DNA of 64,000 bases from Myxococcales bacterium (GCA_037441385.1 JBBISH010000007.1:34963-98962); one strand, 5' to 3'; positions 17,793 to 49,271 are shown, counted from the first letter of the stretch. Made by a program: numbers and translations. Notes: generated by a model from the letters alone, not told the origin.

Positions 17793-18799
17793 GGAACTGC
17801 TGGTTGGCATTGGCTTTGGTCGCCTTGACCACCCTGGCCTGTCGCAAAAACGAGGCGCCGCCCGGCACCGTAACCGACGACTTGGGCCGCTCGGTGCTGC
17901 TGGCCAGGACGCCGCAGCGCCTCGCCTCGCTCTCGCCCGCCACGACCGAGCTGTTGTTCGCCGTGGGTTGTGGCGACAAGCTGGTGTTGCGCGACGGGTG
18001 GAGCGACTACCCGCCTGAGGCCAAGAAAGTCCCCAAGATCGAAGGACTTCAGCCTAGTGCAGAGGCCATCCTGGCCTATCGCCCCGACCTCGTGCTGGTG
18101 AACTATCCCGGCCCCAGCCTGCAAGCCGCCCTGGACGGTGCCGGGGTGGCCTGGGCGGCGCTGTCGCCCGAGACGCTGCCTGCCGTGGCGCGCTCGCTGG
18201 ATCTGGTGGGGCGCCTGTGTGGGCAGCCGCAGCGTGGCGCGGCCAAGGCCGCCGAGTTCCGCACGCAAGTCGATCTTTTGACGGCCGCGTTGAAGAACCG
18301 GCCACGGCTGAAGGTGTTCTACGAGATGGACGTGGGCGACGGCACGCGCCCGTTTACCGTGGGCGCCCGCAGCTTTGCGAGCGGTCTGCTCGAAGTCGCC
18401 GGTGGGCGCAACGTATTTGGCGACCGACAAGAGGCGTGGTTTCCCGTGGGCTTAGAGGCCATCCTGGCCGCCGACCCCGACGTGGTCGTCCTGGGCGACA
18501 GCGACGTCCCAGAGCACCCCCAAACGCCAGCTTTGTTTGCCGCGCGACAGGGATTCGCACAGCTGCGGGCGGTCCAGCAAAACCGGGTGGCGCCCATTCC
18601 GGCGAGCTTGGCCTCGCGTCCCGGCCCGCGACTGCTGCAGGCGGCAACGGCCCTGGCGCGGGTGCTGCATCCCGAGGTGGTGCTTCCCGGAGATCCGCCC
18701 CGCCCGACTGCGGTGCCCGCGCCCAATGCCGCGACGCGAACCGCCGCACCAGCCGCCCCGACTGCAGCCACCGCGACCACGGCGGGACCGACGCCGTGA
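17789..18799 (+). CDS. btuF: Cobalamin/iron-siderophore ABC transporter substrate-binding lipoprotein (BtuF-like)
   Basis: Lipobox LAC; VTDDLGRSV, RLASLSPATTELLFAVG, SDYPPEA, AGGRNVF and SRPGPRL. Confidence 0.78.
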   Translation: MRNCWLALALVALTTLACRKNEAPPGTVTDDLGRSVLLARTPQRLASLSPATTELLFAVGCGDKLVLRDGWSDYPPEAKKVPKIEGLQPSAEAILAYRPDLVLVNYPGPSLQAALDGAGVAWAALSPETLPAVARSLDLVGRLCGQPQRGAAKAAEFRTQVDLLTAALKNRPRLKVFYEMDVGDGTRPFTVGARSFASGLLEVAGGRNVFGDRQEAWFPVGLEAILAADPDVVVLGDSDVPEHPQTPALFAARQGFAQLRAVQQNRVAPIPASLASRPGPRLLQAATALARVLHPEVVLPGDPPRPTAVPAPNAATRTAAPAAPTAATATTAGPTP

Positions 18800-34181: not shown

Positions 34182-36686
34182 TTACGGGAAGTTGGTCACG
34201 TTGTCGACCTTGAGGCACAGCTTGCCGGCGCCCATGTAGCTCGACCAGTTGTGCGCGATGTAGCCGTCGCTGTAGTCCACGTGGTCCCAGCTGTACAGAC
34301 CGCCCACGTACAGCGAGTGGCCGGTCATCTGAATGTAGCCGTTGTTATTCCAGCCCTTCAGCGTGTCCATCGGCATCGACACGTAGCCGCTGGGGCAGTT
34401 GCCGGTCTTGATCGTGCGCACGTTCAAGTACGGTTTGGCGACGCGGGCGAAGTACTTCCAGCACATCGCGGTCACGTGGCTGTTGTGGTAGTAGGTCTGG
34501 GCGTAGTTGTCGCCGCCGTAGCCCCAGCCGCCCATGCCGCCAAAGTAGCTGGAGTTGTCGGTCACCACGTTGTAGGTGTAGCCGTTGCTGCTCTGGATGG
34601 CCGTGACCGCCTTGGCATTCCAACCAGTGGGGCACTTGCTGATGTCCATCACGCCAAACACGACCGGGAACACGCCCGACTGGGTGGCCGGCTCTTCGGT
34701 GGTGCCGTAGACCTTGAAGCAGACGTCCGTGGCTTCCGTGGTCACACTGCGGCGCTGCCAGCCGCCAAATTCGTTGTAGGCCTGGGCGTTGTAGTCCCAC
34801 GTGTCCACGTAGCCCATGTAGGTGCCGGCGCGATTGCTGATGAAGTAGGCGTTGTTGTTGTTGCCGCGCAGCTTGGCCACCGGCACCCAGGTGTAGCCGG
34901 TGGGGCAGGAGTTGGCGCCCGCGTTGGCGCTGGGCATGAACACGCTGATGTGGGCGTTGCCGGTGGGCACGTCCCACGTCTTGTAGCACATGACGGCCGC
35001 GCCCTGGTTCATGTTGGTGTAGGCGAAGCCCATGTAATTGTACATTTGGCCGTAGGCCTTGCCCTGCATGCCACCCATCCAGAAGCCGCTGGTCAGCAAG
35101 TTGACGTACACGTAATTGTCGTCGCCGATGAGGTTCGACACCGGCTCTTGCGTCCAGCCGGCCGGGCAGTTGACGCCGTCGCGCATGCTCATCATCACGG
35201 TGTACTTCGACGTGTTGACCTTGACTTCCGGAGCGGTGCTGGTGATCAGGCCGCCGATGGCCGCGTCCTTCTTGAAGCTCACGTTGCCGTCGACGATCAG
35301 ATCGCCCTTGATCTGGATCTTCTTGTTCGACAGGGTCTGGATGTTGATCGACCAGTTGTACTTGCCGTCGGCGCCGCCGCCCAGGTTCTGCAGCGTGTCC
35401 TTGACAACGATCGACCACGCGCCGGCGATGTTCTTGCCCTTCCAGTCGCCGGTCAGGTCGCCCTTGACGATCGCGTCGGTGTCATTGAACTTCATCGACA
35501 GGGTGGTGCCGGACTTGCCACCGGAGTACAGGTTGTACGGCGTGCTCAGACCGGGGCCGTACAGGTCAACGACCAACTTGCTCACATCGCTGTTGGTGGC
35601 GTCGAACGAGACCGAGATCTTCTGGGCCAGGCCGATGTCCGGGAAGTTCAACGTGTCGGACACGCCCGCGACCAAGCCGTCTTTGATGACCACGTCGGCC
35701 GTGCCCGAGGTCGAGTCGACGAACTGGTTGTAGATCAGGCCGTTCGACACCTCGTCGATGCCGTCGCCCGGCATGTCGCCTTCGACCAGCTTGACGCAGT
35801 TGATCGAACCGTCGGCGTTGTAGCCCTTCATGTACAGGCCGGTGCCGCACAGCGAGTTGACCGCCGGGATCGCCGGCTTGTTGGTCAGGTCGGCGTACGA
35901 GCCGGTGGTGGCGACTTTGGCCAGGTTGGGCGTGTTGGTCAGGTCGGTGTAGCTGCCGGTGCCGGCGACCTTGGCCAGCGACGACGCCTGGACGTAGTTG
36001 GCCAGATCACTGGTCTTGGCATAGGGGGTCAGGTCTGGCCCACCGGTCAAGTCCGAGTACTTGCCGCTGGTGGCCACCTTGGCGAGGGACGCGGACTTGG
36101 CATAGTCGGCCAGGTCCGTCGTCTTGGCGTAGGCGCCCAGGTCGGCGGCCTTGGCGTAGGCGCTCAGATCGCTGGTCTTGGCATAGGGCTGCAGCACCGC
36201 GGCGTCGATCATCGCGCCCTTGACGCAACCCGAGCAATCCAAGCCTTCGGCCAGGCTGGCGCGCAGGGCGTACAGCGAGGCGCCCAGCGGCTGCCGACCC
36301 AGCTCTGGATCACTGCCAATCTGAATCGAAAGGTACGGGGTCGCCAGGCTGAGCACGGCGGCCGTCAGTGGCGTCTTGCTGCCCATCAGGTACGCCATCT
36401 GGCCGTTCTTGACCGAGATGGCCACCGGGCCTTCGGTCCAGACTGGGTTGCCGCCGGTCGCCGCCGCGAACAGCGCAAAGGTAACCTGGTAGGTGCCATC
36501 TGCAGCCGGACCGCCGCCCGTAGACAGCAGCAAGCCTTCGACCGAGGCGGCAGCCGGCATGGCGGCCTGAGCCGGGGCAGCGCCCAAGAGCAGTGCGCCG
36601 GTCAGCGTGGCACCAGCCAACAAAGCCTTCATGATAGGGGAGTTCGCGCGATTGGGCACGCGCTGCGCTTGAGTCGTTGCAGGCAT
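34182..36686 (-). CDS. Secreted phage-tail-fibre-like adhesin with a P-domain and four C-terminal Cys/aromatic repeats
   Basis: AGGAG SD, signal peptide, N-domain (GTYQVTFALF...VWTE...LSIQIGSDPEL.RQPL), DLxxYAK and LAKVATSGxYxDL repeats, proprotein-convertase P-like domain (GKNIAGAWSIVVKD) and four CPxG(W/Y)...CxK units. Confidence 0.8.
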   Translation of the reverse strand: MPATTQAQRVPNRANSPIMKALLAGATLTGALLLGAAPAQAAMPAAASVEGLLLSTGGGPAADGTYQVTFALFAAATGGNPVWTEGPVAISVKNGQMAYLMGSKTPLTAAVLSLATPYLSIQIGSDPELGRQPLGASLYALRASLAEGLDCSGCVKGAMIDAAVLQPYAKTSDLSAYAKAADLGAYAKTTDLADYAKSASLAKVATSGKYSDLTGGPDLTPYAKTSDLANYVQASSLAKVAGTGSYTDLTNTPNLAKVATTGSYADLTNKPAIPAVNSLCGTGLYMKGYNADGSINCVKLVEGDMPGDGIDEVSNGLIYNQFVDSTSGTADVVIKDGLVAGVSDTLNFPDIGLAQKISVSFDATNSDVSKLVVDLYGPGLSTPYNLYSGGKSGTTLSMKFNDTDAIVKGDLTGDWKGKNIAGAWSIVVKDTLQNLGGGADGKYNWSINIQTLSNKKIQIKGDLIVDGNVSFKKDAAIGGLITSTAPEVKVNTSKYTVMMSMRDGVNCPAGWTQEPVSNLIGDDNYVYVNLLTSGFWMGGMQGKAYGQMYNYMGFAYTNMNQGAAVMCYKTWDVPTGNAHISVFMPSANAGANSCPTGYTWVPVAKLRGNNNNAYFISNRAGTYMGYVDTWDYNAQAYNEFGGWQRRSVTTEATDVCFKVYGTTEEPATQSGVFPVVFGVMDISKCPTGWNAKAVTAIQSSNGYTYNVVTDNSSYFGGMGGWGYGGDNYAQTYYHNSHVTAMCWKYFARVAKPYLNVRTIKTGNCPSGYVSMPMDTLKGWNNNGYIQMTGHSLYVGGLYSWDHVDYSDGYIAHNWSSYMGAGKLCLKVDNVTNFP

Positions 36687-37000
36687 TCTCGCTCCTGTCG
36701 CCTCGTCCCCGGCCGGACATGTGCCGGTGGATGCGAAGGCATCGAGGTCGACCACCGGGCGGGGCGTTGGCGCGGACTCCGCTGTGGAAACAGCAGCGCG
36801 GCTCGCCGGTGCGACGTCGCAAGCAGCGTAGCAACGTTGCCGGCGGCTGGCAATGGTCAAATGCTGCACCCAAACGGGTACCTGAGGCGTCGAAGTCCAG
36901 GTGCCGCTGGACGCTGCGCCGGCGGCGCGCTCGCTTGACAGCCTTGCAGCGCCGGGTTCAACCTCTGCCTCACAAACCGGCAAAATCCCAGGGGGTCCCT

Positions 37001-40000
37001 ATGCTCAACAGCCATCCCATGGAGCTGCATCGCGATTTCTTGCGCCACGGCCAGCGCAAGCCCGCCGTCGAGCTGGTTGAGCGGCACGGCCCGCTGCTGC
37101 GCGCGTGGCTACAGTTCACGGAACCGACTGCGAGCGACCTCAAATTCTGCAATGTGATCGGCCAGTTCCTTGGAACACCCTACCGCGGCGTTGGCGAGCT
37201 GTGGCTGCCGTTGCTGCTGGCACGCGGCCACGCCAGCAGTCCAACCGAACGCAATCGTTGCGCTTTGTGGCTGGCGGCTCAGACGGGCTGGACGCCGGAA
37301 CAACTGGGCGCCGCGCTGGCCATTCAAGCCGACGAGGCGGCCGCGGCACTGCAAAGCGCCGTGCTCGAGGCCACGCAAGCTGGGGAGAATCCAGAAAAAG
37401 ACCCGACGCAGCTTGGCCCACTCCATCCGTCGCGAAGCCAACTTGCTGGGGCGGCGACCCGGTCGCTTGGGCCGGCCGGCGCCAGCGAAGCCGCCCTGCA
37501 TCTGACCTGGTGCACACCTTGCAGAGACGAAGTGGGGCGCCTGGCCACAGCGGCTCAGGCCGCGTCCGCAGACCTGCCCGCGCTGGACCCACAGCTGATC
37601 CAAAAAGCCGTGGACTCGGCCGTGACCGCGCGCGAAGAAAATGCCATGGGTCCGCGTATTTCGCGCTTCTTGGGGCTTCGTCCTGGGGCCAAGTGGCGGG
37701 CGCTGCGGTTGGCGGCCATCGCGGCTGGGCTCCTGCTGTGCTTGGCGAGCGCCATCACCCAAGTGCGCCACCGCTGGATCGAAGACGAGCAGCCGGGGCC
37801 CATGCTGAGGGTCCAACTGGGGCCAACCCTGCGTGTGGGCGAGCCGGTGGCCATCGCGGTAGCGGCCTTGGATGGCGCGGGCGTGCCCTACACTGCCGCG
37901 ACCCGCACCGCCGTGCAGCTTGCCGTCCTGGACGACCACGGCCGAACGCTGGCGACCCGCGCCGTGGCGCTGGAGGCCGATGGCACTGCCCACACCACCC
38001 TGACCGTGGCGAGTCTGGACCAGAGGCAGCGGTCGGGCTATCTGCAGGCAACGGCGATACTAGCTGGCCACGAGCGGCGCGCCCAGGTCGACGTGACCGT
38101 GGAGCAGGTGATTCGGCAACATCTTTCGCCGGACAAGCCTACCTACCAGCCTGGGCAGACGGTGCACCTGCGCGGGCTGACCTTTGAGGGGGGCAGCGGC
38201 AAGCCGCTGGCCGGAAAGGCGGCGCGGTTGGAGCTGCGGGATCCCAAGGGCACGCGCGTGGCGCGCAGCGACGTCACGGTCTCGCCGATGGGCGTCAGCT
38301 CGGCCGACATCGAACTGGCGGGCGGGGCGGCGCTCGGCACCTGGCACGCGGTGCTGAAGGTGGGCGAGACCGAGACTTCGGTGCCCATCACCGTCGAGCG
38401 CTACAGCCTGCCACCGTTCAGCGTCAAGGTGACGCCATCCGTGAAGTCCATGACGGATCTGGTGGATTTTGACGTAGACGTGGCGGCCAACCTGATGACC
38501 GGTACGCCGCTGACGGCCGGCAAAGCCAGCCTGACCGCCAGATTGGGCGGGCAGACGCTAGCCTACGACGTCAAGCCGCTGGGCGCGGCGCCGGTGCGTT
38601 TCCACGTGACCATGCCCAAGGGCAAAGACAACAACCTGCGCAGCTACGGGCACTTCTTTGAACAAGTTCAGCTAGAGGTGGTGGTGCGCGACCCCGCCGG
38701 GCGGGCCGAGAGCGGCGCGGGCACGGTCAAGGTGGTGCGCGACCAGATGCGGGTGACTGTGGCGAGCCAAGCGCCGTCGGTACGCCGCGACCTGCCGCGA
38801 CCCAACAAGATCTTGGTGCGGGCGGTGCGGGTCGATGACTCGCCCGTGCAGACCCAGGTGGCGCTGTTTGCGCCGGGCGACGGCGAGCAAGAGACCGTGG
38901 GCGCTGGCGAAAAGCTGGGCGAGGGCACCACGGGTCCCGACGGCATTGCGGCGCTGGACCTGCCGCCAGCGTTTTTTGGCAGGCCGCTGGCGGTCTTGGC
39001 CAAGGACCCCAAGGACGGGCGCACCTACTGGACGCGGCTGGAGCCACCCCAACTGCGCGAGGGCAACCTGCCGCTGGCCTGCGACAAGGCCTTGATTCGG
39101 GCTGGCGATACGCTGACTTGCGAAGTGTTTGCCCCGCTGGCGGCGCGGCCTCAGGTGCGAGCGGAGCTGGATGGCCGCACGGTGGCGATGGTGGCGACAC
39201 CCGCCAAGCCGGGGATCGCGCAGGTGGCCATCCAGATTCCCGACGAGGTGGTGGGCCTGGTACTCATCGCGGTCGACGGCGCGCCCGAGGACGATGTGCT
39301 GAAGGTGCTGGTGGCGCCCAAGGACGGCCTGCGGGTGGCGCTAAGGGGCCTGGAGGCCAAGAAACCCGGCGAAGAGGCTCAGGTTTTGCTGAAGGTCAGC
39401 GACAGCGCGGGTAAGCCCAAGGCAGCGGCGGTGGGTCTGGCAGTGGTCGACGCGGCAGTGTTTGCGCGGGTGGCCGGCGAGACACCCGACAAGGTCATCG
39501 CGGCGTTGTTTGCCCAAAGCGAGCTGGCCGAGGCGGCGATGGCGCTGCTTTTCCCAGAGGCGGAGCCGGGTACCCCCGGCGGGCAGGGGCAGTGGACGCC
39601 GGCCCAGCAGGCCGCAGCGCGCTGGTTCCTGGCCGGTCAGAGCGGCAGCGCCGGGCCGATGCACGACGCCTCGTCGCAACAAAGCGACCTGGACCGGCTG
39701 CGCAATGTGCAGGTCGATGCGCGGATTTTGGCCGACAATACCCTGCACTGGACACTGCTGGTTTGGTCCGCGCTGCTGGCCTTGGCGCTGCTGGTGGCAT
39801 CCTTCTGGTTGCGCAACACGGCGGGCGCGGCCTTGATCGCGCTGGCGATCGGCGGGATGGCCAAGTGGCTGATGAGCGAAGTGGTCGACATCGACCGGCG
39901 CACGGCGGATCCGGTGGTGCTGTTGCTGGCGATTGCCGCGTTCGGCATGGTACTTTGGCTGGTGGTACGCGAGCGGCGCAAGGTCACGCAAGCTGCGGCG

Positions 40001-42604
40001 AGTCCACGGCTTTTGCGCGGGTTGCAGTCGGCGATGTGGGCGACTCTGGCAGTGTTGTTTGTGCTGTCGCTGTGGGGCGTTAGGGGAAGTCTGGGTGGGG
40101 CCAAGGTGGCGATGGCTCCAGCGCGCGACGAAGCGGCGACGGCGACCGTGGAAATGCGGGTAGAGGAACGGGAGCGCGACGACCGCGGCGACGACCACTT
40201 CCGGGCCAAAGCCGAAGAACCCATGGCAGCAGCTGCACCCAAGCCCGCAAGTGCACCGGCCGGCATGGCTGCGGACGGCGATAGCATGGCGCGGAATCGG
40301 GCCCAAATCGAACGAAAGACCATTGCTGGCGCGTTCAAGGACGGCGGGACGAAGCTCTTTGCCGACGACGAGGGCGAGGCCGTCGCCAAGACTTTTGGCA
40401 AAGGCGGCGGAGGGGGCGGCGGCGAAGAAGCGCCCGTAGCCATCCGCAAAGACTTCCCCGAAACCCTCTACTTCAACCCCGCCGCGATCACCGCGGAAGA
40501 CGGCACCGGCTCTGTGCAATTCCACGTAGCCGACTCGATCACCGCCTGGCAAATCTACGCCCTGGCCAGCGACGCAGCCGGCAGCCTGGGCCACGGCAGC
40601 GGCGAGTTGGTGGTCACCAAGCCGTTCCACCTGGACCTGGACGTGCCGCACGACCTGACCGTAGGCGACGAAGTGGCCGTGCAAGTGGCGGTGCAGAATG
40701 AGACTTCGCAAAAGGGCGAGGCCCAGCTGACCGCCAAGAGCGACACCGGCCTGGTGGTGGACGCGACGCTGCTGCAGCAGCCGATTGCCGTGGGGCCGCA
40801 AGGGATTGCGGGTCTGCAGCTGCCGCTGAAGGCTAGCGCGGCCGGCGTGCAGAACGTGACGGTCGCTGGTTCGCTGGCGGGTGACAAAGATGCGCTGCAG
40901 AAGCCCATCGAAGTCGCGCCGGACGGCAAGCAGTTCCTGCAGACCTTTGCCGGCACGGTGACCTCGGAGGTGCGGCGAACGGTGGCGATCCCCGACCTGG
41001 CGCTGGCCGAAGGCCGCTCGGTGCAGCTGACGGTGCTGGGCAGCCCGCTGGCGGCGGCGCTGGACAGCTTGGAGCAAATGGCCCAGGAGCCGCACGGTTG
41101 CTTCGAGCAGCAGGCCTCGACGCTGCTGGTCGACGCCCTGGTCCTGCAGCAGCTGCGCGCGGCGGGCGTGGGCAAGGGCGAGCGCCAAGACCGGCTGGTG
41201 CGCACGCTGGCCCTTGGTTATCAAGAGCTTTTGGGCTACGAGGTCAGCGGCGGCGGCTTTGGTTACTTTGGCGCAGACCGGCGCACCGAGCTGACCGCCT
41301 GGGGTCTGGTCCTGCTGAGCGAGCTGCGCAAGGTCATCTATGTGGACGACGAACTGCTGGAGCGCACGCAACGGGCCCTGTTGGACGCCAAGCACAGCGA
41401 CGACACCTTTGGCTCGCCGGCCGAGACCGCGTATGCGGCCATGGCGCTGGTGGCCGCCGATCCCGACTGCACCCTGCCCTTGGACCCCACCGCCACGCAA
41501 GCGGCCAAGAACCTGCGCGAAACCTGCGGCAAGGTGCTGCACCGCGTCGATCAGATGTTTGCGGCGCCGGCCGGCTTGGACCCGTACGCGCTGGCGTTGG
41601 CGGCCGACGCGCTACTGGGCGCCGGACCCGTGTACCAGAAGCGCGGCGAAGCGCTGCTGGACGAGCTGGATCACCGCGGTGCGCTGGTGGGCGAAGGGCG
41701 CGATCGGCGCGTCAGCTTCCAGCCCAAAGGCGGAACCTTGTTCGCCAGTTATGGCCTGGGCGCCGAGCTGGAGACGACCGCGCTGGTCACCCACGCCTTG
41801 ATCGTCTACGGCGGCCGACCCGACAAGGCGCGCGAGGCGCTACGGGCGGTGCTGGCTTTGCGCAGCGACGACGGCGGCTTCTACTCGACCCAGGGCGCGG
41901 CGCTGGCGGTGCGGGCGCTGTTGGTGGCGAGCGCGGCGGCCAAAAACACCGGCAAGCTGGCGGTACAGGTCGATGGCAAGCAGGTCCGCGAAATTGCCTG
42001 GGATCCTACAACGTTGGCCGCCCCGCAGTTGTTGGAATTGGCACCGCAGTTGCATGCGGGATCCGAGGTCAAGCTGCTGCTGCAAGGCGGCAACGCGCTG
42101 GCCGGCGATGTGGGCTACCGCATCCGCGTCCAGTACTACTTGCCGTGGACTGCGCCGGTGGGGCCGCCGCTCGCGGTGACGGACGAGGTGACGCCGCGCC
42201 TGCGCCTGAGCCAAGGCATGGACCGCGCCGTGTACAACCTGGGCGACAAGGCCACGCAGCAGGTCACGGTGTGGCGCGACGGCACGGCCGGCCAGCGCGG
42301 CATGCTGCTGGTGCAAGTGGGCCTGCCGCCCGGCTTCCAGCTGGCCCAGGGGGCGATCGACAGCCTGCAGCGCGGCGGCGTCAAGCGCGTGGAGCCCTAT
42401 GCCCGCGGCCTGGCCATCTACATGGAGGACCCGTACCGCTGGGGTCCGACGACGATCAGCCTGCCGCTCACGGCTGCGCGGGCGGTCAAGAAGGTGCAAG
42501 TGCCCAGGAGTCGAGTGTATTTCTACTACCAGCCGCAGATCGAGGCGATCGCACCGCCGGTGCCCGTGCTGGTCAAGGCGACCCTGGCGACGGCCCCACG
42601 CTGA
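37001..42604 (+). CDS. Thioester-containing alpha-2-macroglobulin family protein with an N-terminal sigma-like/zinc anti-sigma module and internal TM helices
   Basis: MG2 motif HLSPDKPTYQPGQTVHLR, VGLAVVDAAV, IRKDFPETLYFNP, DSITAWQ, thioester HGCFEQ (41096-41110), GGFYSTQ, VGLPPGF and YFYYQP; HLTWCTPC at 37499-37522. Confidence 0.88.
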   Translation: MLNSHPMELHRDFLRHGQRKPAVELVERHGPLLRAWLQFTEPTASDLKFCNVIGQFLGTPYRGVGELWLPLLLARGHASSPTERNRCALWLAAQTGWTPEQLGAALAIQADEAAAALQSAVLEATQAGENPEKDPTQLGPLHPSRSQLAGAATRSLGPAGASEAALHLTWCTPCRDEVGRLATAAQAASADLPALDPQLIQKAVDSAVTAREENAMGPRISRFLGLRPGAKWRALRLAAIAAGLLLCLASAITQVRHRWIEDEQPGPMLRVQLGPTLRVGEPVAIAVAALDGAGVPYTAATRTAVQLAVLDDHGRTLATRAVALEADGTAHTTLTVASLDQRQRSGYLQATAILAGHERRAQVDVTVEQVIRQHLSPDKPTYQPGQTVHLRGLTFEGGSGKPLAGKAARLELRDPKGTRVARSDVTVSPMGVSSADIELAGGAALGTWHAVLKVGETETSVPITVERYSLPPFSVKVTPSVKSMTDLVDFDVDVAANLMTGTPLTAGKASLTARLGGQTLAYDVKPLGAAPVRFHVTMPKGKDNNLRSYGHFFEQVQLEVVVRDPAGRAESGAGTVKVVRDQMRVTVASQAPSVRRDLPRPNKILVRAVRVDDSPVQTQVALFAPGDGEQETVGAGEKLGEGTTGPDGIAALDLPPAFFGRPLAVLAKDPKDGRTYWTRLEPPQLREGNLPLACDKALIRAGDTLTCEVFAPLAARPQVRAELDGRTVAMVATPAKPGIAQVAIQIPDEVVGLVLIAVDGAPEDDVLKVLVAPKDGLRVALRGLEAKKPGEEAQVLLKVSDSAGKPKAAAVGLAVVDAAVFARVAGETPDKVIAALFAQSELAEAAMALLFPEAEPGTPGGQGQWTPAQQAAARWFLAGQSGSAGPMHDASSQQSDLDRLRNVQVDARILADNTLHWTLLVWSALLALALLVASFWLRNTAGAALIALAIGGMAKWLMSEVVDIDRRTADPVVLLLAIAAFGMVLWLVVRERRKVTQAAASPRLLRGLQSAMWATLAVLFVLSLWGVRGSLGGAKVAMAPARDEAATATVEMRVEERERDDRGDDHFRAKAEEPMAAAAPKPASAPAGMAADGDSMARNRAQIERKTIAGAFKDGGTKLFADDEGEAVAKTFGKGGGGGGGEEAPVAIRKDFPETLYFNPAAITAEDGTGSVQFHVADSITAWQIYALASDAAGSLGHGSGELVVTKPFHLDLDVPHDLTVGDEVAVQVAVQNETSQKGEAQLTAKSDTGLVVDATLLQQPIAVGPQGIAGLQLPLKASAAGVQNVTVAGSLAGDKDALQKPIEVAPDGKQFLQTFAGTVTSEVRRTVAIPDLALAEGRSVQLTVLGSPLAAALDSLEQMAQEPHGCFEQQASTLLVDALVLQQLRAAGVGKGERQDRLVRTLALGYQELLGYEVSGGGFGYFGADRRTELTAWGLVLLSELRKVIYVDDELLERTQRALLDAKHSDDTFGSPAETAYAAMALVAADPDCTLPLDPTATQAAKNLRETCGKVLHRVDQMFAAPAGLDPYALALAADALLGAGPVYQKRGEALLDELDHRGALVGEGRDRRVSFQPKGGTLFASYGLGAELETTALVTHALIVYGGRPDKAREALRAVLALRSDDGGFYSTQGAALAVRALLVASAAAKNTGKLAVQVDGKQVREIAWDPTTLAAPQLLELAPQLHAGSEVKLLLQGGNALAGDVGYRIRVQYYLPWTAPVGPPLAVTDEVTPRLRLSQGMDRAVYNLGDKATQQVTVWRDGTAGQRGMLLVQVGLPPGFQLAQGAIDSLQRGGVKRVEPYARGLAIYMEDPYRWGPTTISLPLTAARAVKKVQVPRSRVYFYYQPQIEAIAPPVPVLVKATLATAPR

Positions 42605-42616
42605 GGCGACCGAGCA

Positions 42617-44314
42617 TTACCCTTTGCGTTCCGTCCCTTCCAGTCCCAACCGCTTGACCAGGGTATCGGCCAGCCGAAAGCCCAGCGCGTAGACGGTCCA
42701 GGTGGGAGGCACGCTACCTCCGGTCGGAAACACAGACGCGTCGGCCACGTACAGGTTGTCGCAATCGTGGACGCGCCCCGTGGCGTCGACGACGGATGTG
42801 GCAGGATCCGCGCCCATGCGGCACGTCCCCGACGGCAGGTTGGTCGCCGGCGCGCCGCGCGAGGACTGGTAGACGTTCTGTGCGCCCAGGCGCTCCAAGA
42901 TGGCCACCCCCTGCGCGAGCAGGTGATCGGCGACCTGCTTGTTGTGCGGGTGTTTGTCGATACGCACCCGCGCCACGGGCTGGCCAAGGTGGTCGCGAAC
43001 CTGCGGATCCAGCGTCACATGACCGGCAGGCGTGGGCAGCCAATCGGCAAAGACCTCGAAAAGCACGCGCTTCTTGCCACGGAATTGCTCTTCCAACGCG
43101 CGCTTGAGCGGCAGCCCCCACAGGGGCACGTCGCCAGTAAAGGCCGCCGACTCCGCCGCGCTGATGCGGTTGGGGCTGCCCAGCATGAATTCGATCAGCC
43201 CGCCCTTGCGCCGCTGACCGGTCTGAGGATCGCGCACGAAGTAGTGGTCCAACACGGCGCGATGCAACCACGGTCCGGGGTGGCGCAATTCGGCGCGCTG
43301 GGCCTCGCTGAAGTCGCGGTACACCAGCTCGCCTCGCGCCCAAGCAGCGGTCGAGAACGCGAGATTCTGGCCGACTTGCCCACTGCTGTTGCCCAAACCG
43401 GCCGGATGCCGCGGACCAGTCGACCGCAGCAGCAGGCGCGCCGTCTCGATGGCCTGGCATGCCACCACGTAGAAGCGCGCCGTCACCTTATGCAAGGCAC
43501 CGAACTTGTTCCGGTACTCCACGTGCGTAATCTGGCCGCGGGCGTTGGTCACCAGCCGTTGGGCGGTCGCCTCGGCCCGCACTGCGCAACTGCCGCTCGC
43601 CACCGCCGCCCCCAGCAGCGCCGCCCGCGAGCTGCCCTTGGCGCCGGTTGCACAGCCATAGTCACCACAGAACCCCGTATATGAACACGGGTTGCGCACA
43701 CCACTGGACCGCGACAACACCGCCCGCGGCACGGGAGTCGCGTGCAGCCCCAACTCGGCACAAGCGCGGTCCAACCAGTCCGCCAGTGGGTGTTCGGCCA
43801 GCGGCGGCAGCGGAAAATCGGGCGTAGAGCGGCGATCGGCCAGGGGATGCAGCCGCGCGCGCCCTGATACGCCCACCGCCGTCTCGACCAGCGTGTACCA
43901 CGGCTCCAGGTCATCGTAGCTGATTGGCCAGTCGGCCACGTTGGCGCCGGGGATGGGACCGAACTCGCTGAGAAGACGAAAATCCTCTGGCTTGAGGCGG
44001 TGGAAGAAGCCGCTCATCAGGTTGCTGGCGCCGCCCACCAGGCTGCCATTCCAGAAGTCCCAGCCGGTGCCTTCGGTGGTCTCGGCCTGCCAACCCTCGT
44101 CTTCGTCGTAGGTTTCGACGACGTGGGGCTCGCTGCGCCGGTCGGGGACGTAGCGAGAGCGGCGCACCGCCGCCACTTCGTCTTTGAAGAAGTCGCCATC
44201 GCGCAGCCACGGGCCCTTTTCGAGCACGACTACGCTCGCTCCAGCCTGAGCCAAGGCGCTGGCCACGCTGCCGCCCCCGGCGCCGCTGCCGATGACGCAG
44301 ACGTCGAATTCCAC
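42617..44314 (-). CDS. GMC family flavoprotein oxidoreductase
   Basis: DVCVIGSGAGG, VGGASNLM, DWPISYDDLEPWY, CxxxGxCxxxGC cluster, GTCRMG and NLYVADASVFPT. GTG start 2 bp after the upstream stop. Confidence 0.9.
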   Translation of the reverse strand: MEFDVCVIGSGAGGGSVASALAQAGASVVVLEKGPWLRDGDFFKDEVAAVRRSRYVPDRRSEPHVVETYDEDEGWQAETTEGTGWDFWNGSLVGGASNLMSGFFHRLKPEDFRLLSEFGPIPGANVADWPISYDDLEPWYTLVETAVGVSGRARLHPLADRRSTPDFPLPPLAEHPLADWLDRACAELGLHATPVPRAVLSRSSGVRNPCSYTGFCGDYGCATGAKGSSRAALLGAAVASGSCAVRAEATAQRLVTNARGQITHVEYRNKFGALHKVTARFYVVACQAIETARLLLRSTGPRHPAGLGNSSGQVGQNLAFSTAAWARGELVYRDFSEAQRAELRHPGPWLHRAVLDHYFVRDPQTGQRRKGGLIEFMLGSPNRISAAESAAFTGDVPLWGLPLKRALEEQFRGKKRVLFEVFADWLPTPAGHVTLDPQVRDHLGQPVARVRIDKHPHNKQVADHLLAQGVAILERLGAQNVYQSSRGAPATNLPSGTCRMGADPATSVVDATGRVHDCDNLYVADASVFPTGGSVPPTWTVYALGFRLADTLVKRLGLEGTERKG

Positions 44315-44316
44315 GG

Positions 44317-44925
44317 TTAGACGGCCCCTTTGAACCAGGGCTCGGGCGGTTGCGGCCACGCGGGCACAAGGCCAAGCCAGCGCCACCCCGCGCCATGGCG
44401 ATTGCCGCCGTAGACGGGGTCGCTCAGCGCCGCTTCCAGCGTGAATACGACCGCCACGCCAAACCGTTCGGCAGCATCGGGGTCCGTCAGCAATTCCTTT
44501 AGCACTGTCGTCTGTTTGTCCACGTCCAGAGCGGCAAACGAAGTCCCGCCAGCACGCTGGACGTGGTCCGCTACGTTTTTCAGCAGTTCCGTCAGCGACT
44601 CCAAATCGTCTGGGTCCAGGCGCGGATCGGCAAGGGCCAGGCGCAGGTAGACCGTCGCACCCAGCTCCGCAGCCCCAGGAGCGCTGGGCTCACTTGGAAG
44701 AATCAAGGCTTGCAGTGCCTCGACCTCGCGCCACTGCGCTGGCGTCAGCGGGTCTACGCGGGTCTGCAGCCACGGCCGCGGCAGCAAACTGGCGGACACG
44801 GCAACGGCAACCGCGGTGAGCGCCGCGCCCTGGGCGAGGAGATCTCGCAACAGAGCGCGGCGACTCACTTTTTGTGGCACCTCTTCCGGACTGGCCGGCT
44901 CGGACGTCTGCAGGTCATGGTCCAT
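44317..44925 (-). CDS. Gluconate 2-dehydrogenase subunit 3 family protein (Tat-exported partner of the GMC enzyme)
   Basis: Twin-arginine SRRALL; ILPSEPSAPGA, SFAALD and SDPVYGGN...GWRWLG. Confidence 0.85.
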   Translation of the reverse strand: MDHDLQTSEPASPEEVPQKVSRRALLRDLLAQGAALTAVAVAVSASLLPRPWLQTRVDPLTPAQWREVEALQALILPSEPSAPGAAELGATVYLRLALADPRLDPDDLESLTELLKNVADHVQRAGGTSFAALDVDKQTTVLKELLTDPDAAERFGVAVVFTLEAALSDPVYGGNRHGAGWRWLGLVPAWPQPPEPWFKGAV

Positions 44926-45724: not shown

Positions 45725-46449
45725 ATGAAGGGGATCGGTGGCGACGCCGTACTCGGATTTTCAGGCGCGGCGGCCGGCAGCCAGATCTGCGGCGGCAGGC
45801 CTCTCTAGGTTAGCGTAACAATTGACAAACACCTGTTCGAGACCAGGGTCGATGTTACCGCCGCCCAGAGCGTGAGCACCGCCGACGGTAACAAGGGTGT
45901 CATCGAAGGCTGGTAAATCCAGAAAGATCCTTTGCCACCAAGTGCTTGTGGCTCATTCGACGGAGCGGACGCCGGGTCGACAGGTGCCGGCGCGGCCGAT
46001 GCGGGGTGGCAGACGCGCGCGCCGCTGACGGCAGAGGAGCCGACTCGGCCACGGCAGAGGTCATGAAAGTGGGCGCCGGCACTGCGGACTCACCTGGCCC
46101 GGACTGCGGCCTACCGGGCGGTCTGGACTGCGCCAACGTCGACCCGCCGGTCGACGACTCCAAAGATCAGAACCCAGGCGCCGCGGATACCGGCACGGAA
46201 ATCGAGGACGCGGGCCAGCCGCCACTGCCCAATACCCAAGCCAAAGCACACACTTCGAGCACCGGCGGCGCTCCACTCGGCGGCACTGACGCATCCGGCA
46301 CCGGTGCTACCATGTCGTCACCGGCAGCCAATCCCAGCGGTTGCTCGGCAAATCGCTCGGCGGGCGGCGGACCTGCATGGCCTGCCTTGGTCTTGGCCAC
46401 TCTGGCGGTTTGGCGCCGCTGGGAGCGCGTTTCGGCCACCCCACGATAG
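45725..46449 (+). pseudogene. Decayed MYXO-CTERM surface-protein gene
   Basis: Frame from ATG 45725 has TAG at 45806 and TAA at 45914. An apparent frameshift near 46000 leads into a D/A/G/T-rich stalk ending SGCSA...WPALVLATLAVWRRW. Confidence 0.55.
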
Positions 46450-46612
46450 CGGCAATACGGAACCACCTCGGGAGGTTTCGCACCGCAGCGCCGGTTTGAC
46501 ACGCCGCGGCCAATTGCCCACGATGCGTCATCCGGCGCGCCCAAGCGCGAACGGAGGCACGATGCAGGACCCGCGCGCGTTCCTTTCGCCCCCACCGTCC
46601 CAAACGCCCGGC

Positions 46613-47479
46613 ATGCGACCGCTTGTGCTGTTTCTGCTGTCGCTGGCAGTGGTTGCAGCAGCTTGCGGCGGCTCGGGCGGCAACGGCGGCTATGCCCTGC
46701 CAGGGGTCGACGTAAACGGCGGCGACGGCGCCATCGCCAAGGATTCAGTTGCGGCCGACAGTGCAGGCGCCGACAGTGCAGGCGCCGACAGTCCAGGCGC
46801 CGACAGTGCCAAGGCGGATGCACCAACGACGAGTGCCGACGCCCAAGATAGCGGCACAGCAGAGGATAGCAGCACAGTGCCCGTGAACAGCGCGCCCAAA
46901 TTCGACAGCCTGGCCGTGCTCACCTTGGATCAGGGCACCTCGACTTCCCTAGACATTGCGCCGTTCTTGCACGACCAAGAAGACACCGCCGCAAAACTGA
47001 AGCTGAGCTGGAGCGCCAAGCACGTGGCGCTGAAAGACCCCGGCGACCACAAGCTGTACGTGGTGGCGCCCACCACCTGGACCGGCACCGAGCCCATCGC
47101 AATGACCGTTACGGACACCGGCGGGGCCACGGCGACCGCGACGCTGACCGTGGTCGTCAAACCCGTGACTGTGCCCACGCCGATTGCGCCCGAGTGCGGC
47201 AAGCACACGTTCTCGTTCAAGGTTGGCGCGGGCAATCACACCGTTCTGTTGTCGGGCTCGTTCAATGGTTGGGCCAAGACCGCGGACAAGGCCGACACCA
47301 TGACCGATCCAGGCGGAACTGGTACCTATTCGGTCGTCAAAGTGCTGGCTGCCGGCGTGTACCAGTACAAGTTTGTGGTCGACGACAAATGGCAACCCGA
47401 CACCGCCAACCCCAACCAGGTGCCCGACGGCTACGGCGGCACCAACGCAGTCATCGAGGTCAAGCCATGCGCACCCTGA
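46613..47479 (+). CDS. Lipoprotein with Ig-like and CBM48/AMPK-type glycogen-binding domains
   Basis: Lipobox AAAC; C-terminal VLLSGSFNGW...AGVYQYKFVVDDKWQPDTANP...DGYGGTNAVI. Alternative start at 46562. Confidence 0.8.
   Translation: MRPLVLFLLSLAVVAAACGGSGGNGGYALPGVDVNGGDGAIAKDSVAADSAGADSAGADSPGADSAKADAPTTSADAQDSGTAEDSSTVPVNSAPKFDSLAVLTLDQGTSTSLDIAPFLHDQEDTAAKLKLSWSAKHVALKDPGDHKLYVVAPTTWTGTEPIAMTVTDTGGATATATLTVVVKPVTVPTPIAPECGKHTFSFKVGAGNHTVLLSGSFNGWAKTADKADTMTDPGGTGTYSVVKVLAAGVYQYKFVVDDKWQPDTANPNQVPDGYGGTNAVIEVKPCAP
46754..46810 (+). repeat. Coding 15-bp tandem repeat (ADSAG x ~4)
   Basis: GCCGACAGTGCAGGC repeated in the lipoprotein linker. Confidence 0.85.
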
Positions 47480-48876
47480 TGGTTCTTTTGGTGTGCGCCG
47501 TGGGATTCGTCGGCTGCAGCGACACCAACACGAGCGGCAATTCGTCCAACGCGGCCGGCGGCGATGCCAGTTCCGACGTGTCGTTTGGCTCGGGCCACGA
47601 CGGCAGCGGCCTTGGCGACGCAACCACCGACAGCGACATCACTTTGACCGCCGACACCGCCAACGACACGGCTGGCGAGAGCGACAGCGGCGGCGGCGCC
47701 GACAGCCAGACCACCGACACCAAGAGCGGCTTCAACTACGAGTGCAAGCCGCTGACCATCGAGTCGTGCGTCACCGCGTGCGGCTCGGCGGGGCTTCGCA
47801 AGTGCTTGAAAGAATGGGGACCGTGCTTTCCGCCCGATGAGTTCTGCGGCAACTGCGTCGACGACAACTGCGACGGTCTGATCAACGAAGGTTGCCCGCC
47901 CAACCCGGCCTGTTCGCCGACCAAGCAGCCCTGCCCAGTCGCCAAAATCCAAATCACAGAGGGCGTTAGCGTCAACGCCGGGACGACCCTGCACCTGTCC
48001 GCCGACGGCTCATTTGGCCAGGGCACGGCCAAGGTGACCAAGTGGTCGTGGAGCGTGCAGGCCCCAGCAGGTGCCGCAGGCAACTTTGCCCCCACTGCGA
48101 CCAGCGCCAGCGTCACGTTTGTGGCCGATGTCGCCGGCCAATACCTATTCCAATTGCAGGTTTGGGACGACGCCGGTGTAGCCAGCTGTGTACCGGCCGT
48201 CACCAGCGTGAGCGCCGCAGTCTACCCGCCCCAAAAGGCCGAGGTGGGCTGCGCCGACGGCACCCGCGAAGGCTTCTTGGACGAGGCCGCGTGGCCGCAA
48301 ATCGCAGCCTGCGCCGGTGCTTGGGAAAAGCCGGGCGTCACGCCAGACAGCGTGGTCCCCACCTGCAACCACCAAGGCGGCAACAGCGGCAGCAAGGCCG
48401 ACGGTTCGGGGTGCGCCGCACCGGATCTGTGCTCGGCGGGCTGGCACATCTGCAAGACCTGGCAAGAAGTCGCCCAGAAGTCGCCCACCGGCTGCGCAGG
48501 CGCCACGCCCGCCGACGCCAAGCCCAAGTCGCTGTTCTTTGCCATCCGCCAACCCAGCTTCAACGGCAGCGTGTGCGGCAACTGGGGCGACGGCTTCAAC
48601 GACGTGTTCGGCTGTGGCAACCTGGGCACGGCGCTGCAGGCCGACAAGAAATGTGGCCCGTTGGACCGCGTAATGGCCAGCACCAAGCCCAACTCGTGTG
48701 GCTTCAACGAAGCCGAGCCCAACCTTGGGCCGTGGCAGTGCCTGGGCAGCGGCGCCAGTGACCTGAACGAAGGCGCGAACGTGACCAAGAAGGCCTGCCA
48801 AAACCAAACGTGCCAGTACGATGGCGCGCCCATCGGCCCCGCCGACAAGGGCGGCGTCCTTTGCTGCCACGACTGA
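47467..48876 (+). CDS. Cys-rich lipoprotein with a PKD-like domain
   Basis: Lipobox FVGC; DDNCDGLINEGC; PKD-like TLHLSADGS...KWSWSV...AGQYLFQLQVWD; C-terminal GCADGTREG...GGVLCC domain. Overlaps the upstream gene end. Confidence 0.78.
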   Translation: MRTLMVLLVCAVGFVGCSDTNTSGNSSNAAGGDASSDVSFGSGHDGSGLGDATTDSDITLTADTANDTAGESDSGGGADSQTTDTKSGFNYECKPLTIESCVTACGSAGLRKCLKEWGPCFPPDEFCGNCVDDNCDGLINEGCPPNPACSPTKQPCPVAKIQITEGVSVNAGTTLHLSADGSFGQGTAKVTKWSWSVQAPAGAAGNFAPTATSASVTFVADVAGQYLFQLQVWDDAGVASCVPAVTSVSAAVYPPQKAEVGCADGTREGFLDEAAWPQIAACAGAWEKPGVTPDSVVPTCNHQGGNSGSKADGSGCAAPDLCSAGWHICKTWQEVAQKSPTGCAGATPADAKPKSLFFAIRQPSFNGSVCGNWGDGFNDVFGCGNLGTALQADKKCGPLDRVMASTKPNSCGFNEAEPNLGPWQCLGSGASDLNEGANVTKKACQNQTCQYDGAPIGPADKGGVLCCHD

Positions 48877-48957
48877 TGCGAACCCCACGTGCATTCACGC
48901 CTGCACGGCTTCCGTGACCCGCTCTGCAATCTGCGAAAATCAGGTGGGGTGCGCATA
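48876..48957 (+). repeat. Repeat family A, short copy with terminal inverted repeats
   Basis: ATGCGAACCCCAC...AAATCAGGTGGGGTGCGCAT. Confidence 0.8.
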
Positions 48958-48968
48958 AGGCTCTGTAA

Positions 48969-49102
48969 TACCAGTTCCGTCCGGATCGGATTGAAAAATC
49001 GGGCAATTCTCCGGGTTCGAACCGGGGTCCCCGCCTGATTCTCGCCAGTTGCACAACGGGCCAGAAAAAGCGTATAGGCGTGAATCAGGTGGGGTGCGTA
49101 TA
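48969..49102 (-). repeat. Repeat family A, long copy in reverse orientation
   Basis: Reverse complement TATACGCACCCCACCTGATTCACGCC...GAGAATCAGGCGGGGACCCCGGTTCG...GGACGGAACTGGTA. Confidence 0.85.
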
Positions 49103-49271
49103 GTGAGTTAACTTGAGCATTTCGGCTGCTGGGTGGGCCGCAAGCTCACGGCCTTTGGGCCGATTCGCCGCGGCGGCGTTCGGAAGTGATCGACTTGTTT
49201 CGAGAAAGACCCTAAGCATGCTCTTAGCCTCTCTTCATGCGGTTCCGCGGGGGCCCAGGCACTCTGTGCTG

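Follow-up and report, generated by a model that had tools for sequence, protein, structure and literature searches.

The gene and its domains

The window analysed here is a stretch of 64,000 nucleotides from a Myxococcales bacterium (GCA_037441385.1, JBBISH010000007.1:34963-98962), whose genome is a 6.6-Mb, 221-contig metagenome-assembled draft. We examined one of its genes, at 37001-42604 on the plus strand, in which a sigma-like domain of 130 aa is followed by a zinc anti-sigma (ZAS) domain with HHCC ligands, a transmembrane (TM) helix and a thioester (GCFEQ) alpha-2-macroglobulin (A2M). The gene stands alone, as its upstream neighbour is divergent (minus strand) and the GMC oxidoreductase gene downstream (42617-44386) is convergent. 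Its features are listed below with the evidence for each in brackets (AF2, AlphaFold2; dN/dS, ratio of nonsynonymous to synonymous substitution rates; MG, macroglobulin domain; RBD, receptor-binding domain).

37001-42604, plus strand: whole coding sequence, 1867 aa, monocistronic (open reading frame list, translation, codon-position GC)
37013-37228, plus strand: sigma2-like half, aa 5-76, four helices (AF2, VIA-align, hhalign)
37241-37384, plus strand: sigma4-like half, aa 81-128, three helices including a helix-turn-helix (AF2, hhalign)
37385-37423, plus strand: low-confidence linker at the putative former gene boundary, aa 129-141 (AF2, split form at locus L010)
37424-37669, plus strand: predicted class I ZAS domain, aa 142-223, ligands H142, H167, C171 and C174 (alignment, AF2, VIA-align)
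37649-37714, plus strand: juxtamembrane motif GPRxxRFxGLxPGAxxRxLRLA (alignment, dN/dS)
37703-37765, plus strand: predicted TM helix 1, aa 235-255, N-terminus inside (Kyte-Doolittle, AF2)
37787-39478, plus strand: periplasmic part from MG1 to MG6/bait-region domain, aa 263-826 (Pfam, PDB matches)
39749-40093, plus strand: cluster of four predicted TM helices at the bait-region position (hydropathy scans)
40091-40444, plus strand: Ala/Gly/acid-rich linker just before MG7, candidate bait, aa 1031-1148 (composition, orthologue identity)
40463-40729, plus strand: A2M (MG7) domain, aa 1155-1243 (Pfam PF00207, 5.7e-16)
41018-41920, plus strand: thioester domain, aa 1340-1640 (Pfam TED_complement, 2.5e-15)
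42296-42550, plus strand: C-terminal receptor-binding-type domain (MG8/RBD), aa 1766-1850 (Pfam A2M_recep, 3e-7)

The open frame on the plus strand extends from 36677 to 42604 in the open reading frame list, and the ATG at 37001 is preceded by AGGGGG, a ribosome-site-like run. GC content by codon position is flat before this start (0.68/0.66/0.69 over 36677-37000) and becomes coding-like at 37001 (0.72/0.55/0.75), and five full-length homologues have N-termini that fall, in the alignment, no more than about 7 residues from the same ATG.

As the genome is a draft of 221 contigs, and as GC at third codon positions is lower in codons 1-253 (0.75) than in the body (0.85), it could be argued that two genes were joined by an assembly or frameshift error, or that the upstream part is untranslated and the true start is Met216, before the TM helix. 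This explanation is already contradicted by the data and we regard it as next to impossible. A contig from an independent assembly of the probable source run spans 36900-38100 with no differences, and another sample from that study yielded three small contigs that span 37220-37841 with one substitution and no insertions or deletions; the contigs of the two samples thus show no join error across the junctions. The same in-frame fusion is kept in six other genomes, and the frame is shared by a partial orthologue of 79% identity, which passes through the junctions with other linker residues, and by five more distant genomes despite their different linker sequences. The sequence-only reading, made from this DNA before the present analysis, had named homologues that begin at the TM helix as evidence against itself. 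None of the homologues begins there; in the short forms the ZAS domain comes first, and a sigma or mini-sigma is encoded by a gene of its own upstream. Since the orthologue is in frame and dN/dS is 0.26-0.29, the region from aa 1 to about 250 is translated and under purifying selection. We conclude that 37001-42604 is one real gene and not an assembly join.

A predicted sigma-type fold at the N-terminus

The sequence-only reading had picked out the segments AVELVERHGPLLRAW (aa 22-36), ERNRCALW...LQSA (aa 83-120) and HPSRSQL (beginning at H142), an H-x3-C-x2-C motif, a TM helix and GCFEQ, and all of them lie where it had placed them. It had likened the first two segments to compressed and degenerate regions 2 and 4 of an extracytoplasmic function (ECF) sigma factor, and the next ones to a zinc anti-sigma module. 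The former likeness is borne out by hhalign, AF2, structural matches and relatives in the operon position, and the latter by four ligands that are invariant in all eight family members.

We aligned the N-domains (8 sequences) by hhalign to 10 bona fide ECF sigma factors, 9 from the source genome and one from the related locus L012. The match (Prob 71%, E 3.7e-5, score 35.9) covers 108 colinear columns, from the first sigma2 helix to the helix-turn-helix of region 4.2, while reversed alignments scored 13.8 and 15.7 and the best of 20 column shuffles 11.8.

The AF2 model of aa 1-262, made with a ten-row alignment, had a mean predicted local distance difference test score (pLDDT) of 89.7 and a predicted template modelling score of 0.77 (pLDDT 86.2 for aa 1-135 alone). 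In it, groups of four and of three helices are followed by a low-confidence linker, another four helices and a long TM helix, with the sigma2-like helices at aa 6-16, 19-40, 46-57 and 65-75 and the sigma4-like helices at aa 81-95, 99-106 and 110-128. The linker drops below pLDDT 50 at aa 130-134, and the stop and start codons (4-nt overlap) of the split form at locus L010, in which the two parts are separate genes, fall within it.

Comparison of the model with 48,161 PDB chains by VIA-align ranked CnrH first (Z 9.9, root-mean-square deviation 3.1, 126 residues, model residues 4-131) and the SigW of the SigW-RsiW complex second (Z 9.7, 127 residues), which is the kind of structural match to sigma factors by which the sequence-only reading had proposed to check its claim. 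Among the 18 rows with Z of at least 5.6, 14 were sigma factors or sigma complexes, one was PhyR (3n0r, Z 7.3), two were Orc6 and one was unclassified. With the domain alone, Foldseek also placed CnrH first (prob 1.00, TMq 0.61), followed by PhyR sigma-like domains and SigW. The nearest named clusters in a language-model look-up, taken as a lead only, were all of the Sigma70_r4 type (score 0.90).

A PDB profile search with the N-domain alignment gave only weak rows, namely a designed repeat protein (E 1e-4, through a repeated helix-turn-helix-like 20-mer), the PhyR-type entry 9cb6 (E 0.15) and CnrH (E 0.66), and was not used as support alone. Entry 9cb6 was the sole sub-threshold PDB sequence match of the sigma4-like part. 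The sigma2 plus sigma4 helical fold of ECF sigma factors is present according to AF2, VIA-align and hhalign, and the cytoplasmic N-terminus is, by these predictions, a miniaturised sigma-fold domain of about 130 aa with a sigma2-like and a sigma4-like half.

Loss of sigma motifs

No Pfam family was found in aa 1-253 of the window protein at E <= 1, and the Pfam sigma models matched none of six fused N-termini (searched at E <= 1 for the window and at E <= 10 for the five others). The split 136-aa form of L010 matched r4_2 only (E 0.092, 12.8 bits against a cut-off of 25.7), whereas the canonical neighbour sigma factors of related loci score about 1e-15 with the sigma models.

The motif of region 2.2 serves core binding, and regions 2.4 and 4.2 recognise the -10 and -35 elements, respectively. 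Neither the D/E-x-x-Q-E/D motif of region 2.2 nor a full region 2.3-2.4 was found in the sigma-like domains: the Q of region 2.2 is present in 10/10 real sigma factors and in 0/8 sigma-like domains, and the region 2.3-2.4 block has 15-18 aa with 0-2 K/R, as against 19-23 aa with 3-7 K/R. The recognition block of region 4.2 carries 0-3 K/R and 0-4 D/E in the sigma-like domains (2-5 K/R and 0-2 D/E in the real ones), and its helix is net acidic in six of seven fused forms, that of the window having no K/R and three D/E. The whole domain is 128-136 aa long vs 186-228 aa in real sigma factors, and about 45 template positions between the halves, i.e. the linker and region 4.1, are without a counterpart in the hhalign alignment. 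Only L72, L73, L91, A92, G96 and A116 are invariant, all of them core or turn positions. Without a region 2.2 motif, a complete region 2.4, a linker or a region 4.1, and with an acidic recognition helix, the domain probably no longer works as a sigma factor.

Alternatively, the gene could encode a one-protein ECF system, comparable to ECF52 (SCO4117) or IutY, with a minimal active sigma factor that would be freed by regulated intramembrane proteolysis once a protease attacks the A2M ectodomain and would transcribe targets including its own gene. Fused sigma-ZAS-TM proteins that are thought to be activated by proteolysis exist, according to the relevant parts of two publications (PMC8999054, PMC5826349), and the fold does comprise a sigma2-like and a sigma4-like half. 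We nevertheless consider such a system very improbable, given the missing Q in all eight sigma-like domains, the shortened region 2.4, the loss of about 45 residues, the acidic recognition helix and the blindness of the Pfam sigma models to the domain. In known systems, proteases that act from the end of the cytoplasmic anti-sigma remnant remove this remnant, and in the fusion they would run on into the sigma part.

The sequence-only reading had left the choice between release of the sigma-like domain and titration of an ECF sigma factor, and the evidence favours the sigma-mimic or titration version over the release of a working sigma. Most probably, the domain mimics a sigma factor in the manner of PhyR and docks in cis on the anti-sigma part.

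The zinc anti-sigma domain, the membrane anchor and predicted docking

A putative class I HHCC anti-sigma domain follows the sigma-like domain in the same chain. H142 lies 24 residues before HLTWCTPC (H-x3-C-x2-C; aa 167-174, nt 37499-37522), and H142, H167, C171 and C174 are the four invariant ligands. AF2 predicted four helices in this domain, and VIA-align matched RslA (3hug_B) to model residues 141-197 (Z 4.8, 25% identity). The window protein has no zf-HC2 match at E <= 1, and thus none at the curated cut-off, and the NCBIfam antisigma model NF052375 matched aa 162-248 below its cut-off (E 0.0036, 17.3 bits vs 100). On the other hand, the canonical relatives L012, L013, L014 and L016 pass zf-HC2 and align with the window ZAS domain.

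The juxtamembrane motif that follows has R222, G225, G229, R233, R236 and L237 as invariant residues. TM helix 1 shows a Kyte-Doolittle peak of 2.17 with five K/R in the preceding 15 residues, and AF2 extends the helix over aa 233-261. Against the 79% orthologue, dN/dS was 0.29 for the sigma-like domain, 0.26 for the ZAS domain, 0.125 for the juxtamembrane motif and TM helix 1, the lowest value of the N-terminal part, and 0.12 for the A2M core.

We predicted the complex of aa 1-135 with the ZAS domain (aa 138-226) as two chains with custom alignments. The ipSAE was 0.85 (0.85, 0.86 and 0.85 in separate runs), with 0.00 as the best of three controls; the pass mark is reached by 116/157 solved complexes and 2/215 mismatched pairs, a calibration which is only rough here given the custom alignments. 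The runs agreed in at least 94% of contacts, with a partner pLDDT of at least 85, and in them aa 13-60 of the sigma2-like half and aa 89-125 of the sigma4-like half touch ZAS helices 1, 3 and 4. The groove by which the anti-sigma domain would bind a sigma factor may thus be occupied by the sigma-like domain of the same chain, akin to the mimicry of PhyR.

It could also be that the protein is a membrane-anchored protease trap with a relic tail, in which the pseudo-sigma and ZAS parts would no longer signal and would remain as a folded cytoplasmic anchor that sets the N-in topology, while the A2M part would protect the periplasm as thought for other bacterial A2Ms. This would agree with a sigma-like domain that lacks every motif needed for sigma function and is invariant only at hydrophobic core residues, and with a cytoplasmic module whose dN/dS (0.26-0.29) is about double that of the A2M core (0.12). 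Against this, the juxtamembrane motif is among the most constrained stretches (0.125), and the module, its four zinc ligands included, persists in a clade whose A2M bodies are only 41-50% identical. We regard the relic tail, the main rival of the preferred reading, as somewhat unlikely, and return to it below where the relatives and the upstream regions bear on it.

The A2M body and a predicted membrane cluster at the bait position

The sequence-only reading had described a full A2M body without a signal peptide or lipobox and without pbpC at the locus, and each of these statements stood. Four Pfam families exceed their cut-offs (MG2, 2.9e-18; A2M, 5.7e-16; TED_complement, 2.5e-15; A2M_recep, 3e-7), with A2M_BRD and MG3 slightly below theirs. 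By reading and by Kyte-Doolittle hydropathy there is no hydrophobic segment before aa 234, and the N-terminus is a 233-aa soluble module. The neighbours are the genes of a secreted repeat protein and of the GMC oxidoreductase, with no penicillin-binding protein among them.

MG2 was placed at aa 374-459, MG3 at 468-511 and A2M_BRD at 741-821, and PDB matches to MG2-MG3 of TEP1 were found. MG, A2M, thioester and receptor-binding-type domains are thus all present, as is the CxEQ motif of putative reactivity: GCFEQ occupies aa 1366-1370 (nt 41096-41110), and G1366, E1369 and Q1370 are invariant. In a PDB phmmer search the body was closest to metazoan A2ML1 (6.8e-30), followed by CD109, A2M and TEP1 (to 4e-20), and no bacterial A2M structure was matched by the whole protein at E <= 1e-3.

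At the bait position before MG7 there are four predicted TM helices (aa 917-937, 941-962, 971-989 and 1011-1031), which the sequence-only reading had not mentioned, and a low-complexity linker of 118 residues, with residue 729 of human A2M aligning to aa 1146. A conserved helical stretch lies between the bait-region domain (to about aa 826) and the four-helix cluster, and MG7 follows the linker from aa 1152. The positive loop RERRKVTQAAASPR between TM4 and TM5, with five K/R, separates the last two helices of the cluster. The candidate-bait linker contains 22 D/E, 17 K/R, 17 G and 27 A and is fast-evolving, with 51% identity to the orthologue vs 80% overall. With five K/R before TM helix 1 and another five between the last two helices, an N-in orientation that leaves both halves of the A2M in the periplasm would be the simplest topology.

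The four-helix cluster is kept in all near relatives. At the same place, the more distant L012 and L014 have three to four hydrophobic segments (3 at threshold), L016 and L023 have two, and two Poribacteria A2Ms that lack a ZAS domain have none. Tethered by TM helix 1 and the four-helix cluster, the A2M ectodomain would act as a periplasmic protease trap and sensor.

The source genome has other A2M genes. On contig C30 a lipoprotein thioester A2M (GCTEQ; 45917-51913, minus strand) adjoins the only pbpC-type gene (43488-43709, minus strand), where the sole BiPBP_C match of the 6.6-Mb genome lies. On contig C39 there is a second lipoprotein A2M, without thioester motif (12880-19179, minus strand). 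The lipoprotein end ...LTVAC was seen in the other A2M paralogue of the genome. Because the genome has both a pbpC-linked thioester lipoprotein A2M and a thioester-less lipoprotein A2M, the window gene is, by its predicted features, a third and distinct kind.

Relatives and origin of the fusion

An exhaustive HMMER search with aa 1-270 over 1.84 billion representative proteins (E <= 1e-3) returned 9 proteins. Apart from the partial 79% orthologue, these were three long forms (1857-1898 aa) matching from about residue 6, three forms of about 1700 aa starting at query residue 142, one 136-aa protein matching residues 4-127, and one ordinary anti-sigma factor of 233 aa.

Scanning one genome per species, we found 23 loci. 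The fused form is present at six of them, L005 (partial), L006-L009 and L011, in metagenome-assembled genomes (MAGs) labelled Myxococcota, Myxococcales, Bradymonadia or Deltaproteobacteria. At L010, which has the split form, a 136-aa mini-sigma gene (5992-6402) overlaps by 4 nt a 1703-aa gene that starts at the ZAS domain; the maintenance of the mini-sigma as a separate gene is hard to explain if it were a mere anchor, as the relic-tail explanation would have it.

At six further loci, L012-L015 (Myxococcales MAGs), L016 (Planctomycetota) and L023 (Pirellulaceae), we identified a canonical form, in which a ZAS-TM-A2M gene is immediately preceded by the gene of an ECF sigma factor. In 5/6 the latter gene runs up to the start codon of the former (with a 4-nt overlap in L012), and the gap is about 130 nt in L023. 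All six canonical sigma factors exceed the Pfam cut-offs of both Sigma70_r2 and r4_2, and the A2M N-termini exceed that of zf-HC2 in four of five tested (L015 left out), L023 scoring 19.3 vs 22.2. The H-x3-C-x2-C motif is missing at L017, L018 (Poribacteria), L019 (Verrucomicrobia), L021 and L027, in an inspection that left out L020, L022 and L024-L026. A metagenome scan with the full-length alignment gave six loci and no new fused form among them.

We then searched 401 genomes of the phylum with a profile of window aa 1-262. Strong full-length matches (E <= 1e-40) were detected in 7 genomes: G000, one of seven further genomes of its genus, two more of its family, one of them with the split form, and three that belong to a single genus of another family. 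Weak matches were found in 148 genomes, most of which, among the matches listed, align to the ZAS part only. Several weak matches span positions of about 90-215 across a stop codon. One of the loci, L057, is a real ECF sigma gene (r2, 2.4e-16; r4_2, 9e-16) followed by a zf-HC2 anti-sigma factor; therefore, the sigma4-like and ZAS parts of the window protein align colinearly with a real gene pair.

Two other candidates were dropped. At L066 only the ZAS half of the match across the stop codon was confirmed. The 1807-aa open reading frame of L080 (2752-8172, plus strand, contig C60 of G305) was found to encode not an A2M but a kinase-STAND-WD40 protein, in which an N-terminal HxxxCxxC-like motif precedes a Ser/Thr kinase, an nSTAND1 NTPase and WD40 repeats; the ZAS part of the profile had matched it.

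A quick maximum-likelihood tree of the A2M bodies was built from 15 rows with the N-terminal modules trimmed, leaving out L005, P0003, L013, L015, L016 and L019 as partial or cut. In this tree seven fused forms constitute one clade (SH-aLRT 99), with the split form as their sister (97); two short forms branch off basally to both (100), and the canonical forms lie across the midpoint root. This suggests that the sigma factor shrank first as a separate gene and was then fused once, an order that depends on the root. On sequence grounds, the gene can be traced to an operon that paired an ECF sigma factor with a zinc anti-sigma factor, the latter having A2M as its periplasmic domain.

The canonical family is by no means small: residues 1-330 of the L012 protein, used as the query, matched 232 proteins at E <= 1e-5. 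Among the 120 matches listed, at least 29 have H-x3-C-x2-C at residues 26-32; 26 of the 29 also have GCxEQ, and 28 have at least one hydrophobic segment at the position of the cluster. One of these ZAS-type homologues is named 'anti-sigma factor RsiW' by a source.

Upstream regions and partner sigma factors

Upstream of the fused genes in L007, L008 and L011 we detected an invariant GAACTTTTCCGGTG...CGT, an ECF-promoter-like footprint of the form GAAC-N16-CGT (about 5860-5900 in L007, about 5880-5920 in L008 and L011). The surrounding upstream DNA is divergent, and the three genes come from one genus. A similar GAACC-N17-CGTT is present about 30 nt before the sigma start in the canonical operons L012-L015. 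The footprint would match the expectation for an autoregulated ECF operon and so agrees with a working sigma factor; its conservation before three fused genes also speaks against a relic tail.

The window gene itself has no such site, which agrees with a relic tail and tells against a working sigma. In the whole window, GAAC-N15-17-CGT occurs 29 times vs 25.6 expected, i.e. it is not enriched. Neither a sigma-70-type site nor a terminator was found in 36500-37100, and a TTGACA seen by eye at about -60 was rejected, as no acceptable -10 accompanies it. The relic-tail explanation also gains from the search for a partner sigma factor, none having been found nearby or by similarity. The source genome has 16 genes that match Sigma70_r2, its ECF sigma genes being a subset of them.

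The divergent neighbour of the window gene (34182 to about 36635, minus strand) codes for a secreted product of about 817 aa and contains tandem repeats of 27 nt and 54 nt, whose units are 9-aa repeats of the DLxxYAK type. Its GC content, 0.61-0.63, is below that of the surroundings. It is without a Pfam family, and only PHROG families of unknown function match it (3e-11).

The neighbours of the fused genes elsewhere are of other kinds. Two genes upstream there is a PP2C phosphatase gene in L007 (4150-4917, minus strand) and in L008 (1919-2686, minus strand), a divergent Ser/Thr kinase-TPR gene lies directly upstream in L011 (2320-5802, minus strand), and in all three loci a TPR protein is encoded downstream of the fused gene.

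Comparison with known systems

The pairs RsiW-SigW, RslA-SigL, ChrR-SigE and CnrY-CnrH share with the window protein the HHCC motif, the four-helix anti-sigma domain and one TM helix. In such class I ZAS/ECF pairs the partner has the sigma2 plus sigma4 fold, and the interface predicted here likewise uses both halves; the sigma gene lies directly upstream, as in the canonical A2M relatives. Unlike in these pairs, the sigma partner of the window protein is fused, about 60-70 residues shorter and degenerate, and the place of their small sensor is taken by a 1600-aa thioester A2M with internal TM helices.

In the relevant parts of the sources, ECF52 (SCO4117 of Streptomyces coelicolor), ECF48/53 and IutY (ECF243) are described as combining sigma factor, zinc finger, TM helix and extracytoplasmic domain in one protein, with activation by proteolysis proposed or shown for fusions of the ECF52 type and IutY (PMC8999054, PMC5826349). 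The domain order is the same here. As described there, the ECF52/IutY type has a full ECF sigma that is seen by sigma models and acts as a transcription factor, whereas ours is degenerate, and its outer domains are proline-rich/carbohydrate-binding or FecR-like rather than A2M; ECF52 is described as exclusive to Actinobacteria. The sequence-only reading knew of no characterised protein with this architecture, and here the emphasis shifts somewhat, as one-protein sigma-ZAS-TM fusions in themselves are on record with ECF52 (SCO4117) and IutY (PMC8999054, PMC5826349). The novelty lies in the A2M ectodomain and the degenerate sigma.

The PhyR-NepR-EcfG partner switch of the alphaproteobacterial general stress response, as outlined in the part of PMC8999054 that treats it, offers another parallel. 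The sigma-like domain of PhyR likewise has about 130 aa and the sigma2 plus sigma4 fold, and occupies an anti-sigma factor without acting as a sigma. Foldseek matched the PhyR entries 9cb6, 2lfw and 4g97 with prob 0.89-0.99 at 15-20% identity. PhyR differs in being soluble, fused to a receiver, controlled by phosphorylation and bound to NepR; here there is no receiver, and ZAS, TM and A2M parts follow. The likeness is confined to size, fold and loss of sigma motifs, and does not distinguish homology from convergence.

Bacterial A2Ms are divided into Type I (ECAM/YfhM of E. coli and SaA2M of Salmonella, with PBP1c) and Type II (MagD) in the relevant part of PMC5764988. As characterised there, Type I shares with the window protein a multi-MG protease trap at the inner membrane facing the periplasm and a CxEQ thioester (PMC5764988). 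Unlike Type I, the window protein has no lipobox and no adjacent pbpC, is predicted to be anchored by TM helices and has the membrane cluster at the bait position.

A large transmembrane ZAS anti-sigma factor is also known from Myxococcus xanthus, where DdvA and its cognate ECF sigma DdvS regulate a defence island, according to the portion of PMC11506125 that describes them. The relatives of the window gene are also labelled Myxococcota. As far as that portion goes, DdvA-DdvS differs in having another outer domain and a separate functional sigma. Our full-text literature searches found no paper on A2M-type anti-sigma factors or on the pairing of ECF sigma factors with ZAS-A2M proteins. The main text of the ECF re-classification (PMC7826278) does not contain 'A2M', and the part of its supplement that we examined contains none of 'A2M', 'macroglobulin', PF01835 and PF00207, a mention in the remainder being possible.

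A possible protease alarm

Taken together, the best explanation, which we put forward tentatively, is that the window gene encodes an inner-membrane protein of sigma/anti-sigma descent in which a sigma mimic would be held in cis and the A2M part would serve as a protease trap and sensor. A specific mechanism can be proposed, in which a foreign protease would cleave the linker beside the membrane cluster and the A2M part would then undergo the rearrangement known to follow cleavage of A2M. The TM bundle and the conserved juxtamembrane motif could pass this rearrangement on to the anti-sigma domain. The latter would switch between the tethered mimic and a free ECF sigma factor, i.e. partner switching would take place within one protein. 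Taken by itself, this protease-triggered partner switch in cis is more doubtful than the overall reading.

Several observations weigh against the preferred reading of a cis-held mimic under an A2M sensor. The Z of 9.9 lies within the range (below about 13) that a common helical arrangement can attain, and, because helical models can reach such values in this way, the case for the sigma fold rests on the agreement of independent lines. Foldseek with the 262-aa and 135-aa models gave no match at E <= 1e-3. The predicted complex is a textbook pair and may pass through its likeness to solved sigma/anti-sigma complexes; since such complexes have already been solved, the pass is a sign of likeness and not a proof of binding. 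With a dN/dS about twice that of the A2M core, the cytoplasmic module is the less constrained part of the protein. There is no candidate for the free sigma factor, as tblastn with four canonical A2M-operon sigmas gave only generic matches of 30-38%, and none of the fused genes has an ECF sigma gene as a neighbour. No GAAC-N15-17-CGT was found between 35743 and 37944 of the window. The TM helices are predicted from hydropathy only, the third internal helix being weak (1.57). Finally, the thioester Cys is replaced in two of eight relatives, P0005/L006 and P0008 (GTFEQ, GSFEQ), so that not all members of the family would trap covalently.

The usual view of bacterial A2Ms is that of passive protease traps in the periplasm, and ECF anti-sigma factors are the commonest route by which bacteria report envelope events to the transcription machinery; this locus and its relatives join both. 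If the protein signals, it would provide a direct protease-sensing pathway. For the A2M fold, the membrane-embedded helix cluster that is predicted at the bait position is a new and unexplained structural feature. The window form also documents, with intermediates, what appears to be the decay of a sigma factor into a fused sigma mimic, in parallel to PhyR.

The finding widens to an unstudied family of putative A2M-bearing anti-sigma factors, with at least 29 homologue clusters that carry a ZAS domain on A2M among the matches listed and at least six operons, in two phyla, that pair a canonical ECF sigma with a ZAS-TM-A2M gene; the window form is a rare derived member. Perhaps these anti-sigma factors constitute a transmembrane protease-alarm pathway, in which the A2M part, once cut beside the helix cluster, would close on a foreign protease that enters the periplasm and the movement would reach the ZAS domain through the TM bundle; the canonical operons would then free an ECF sigma, and the window lineage would have turned to a partner switch in cis, with a tethered mimic, that captures or releases a free ECF sigma. 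We hold this view to be unlikely as it stands. If true, it would be a bacterial counterpart of thioester-protein innate immunity that is wired directly to transcription.

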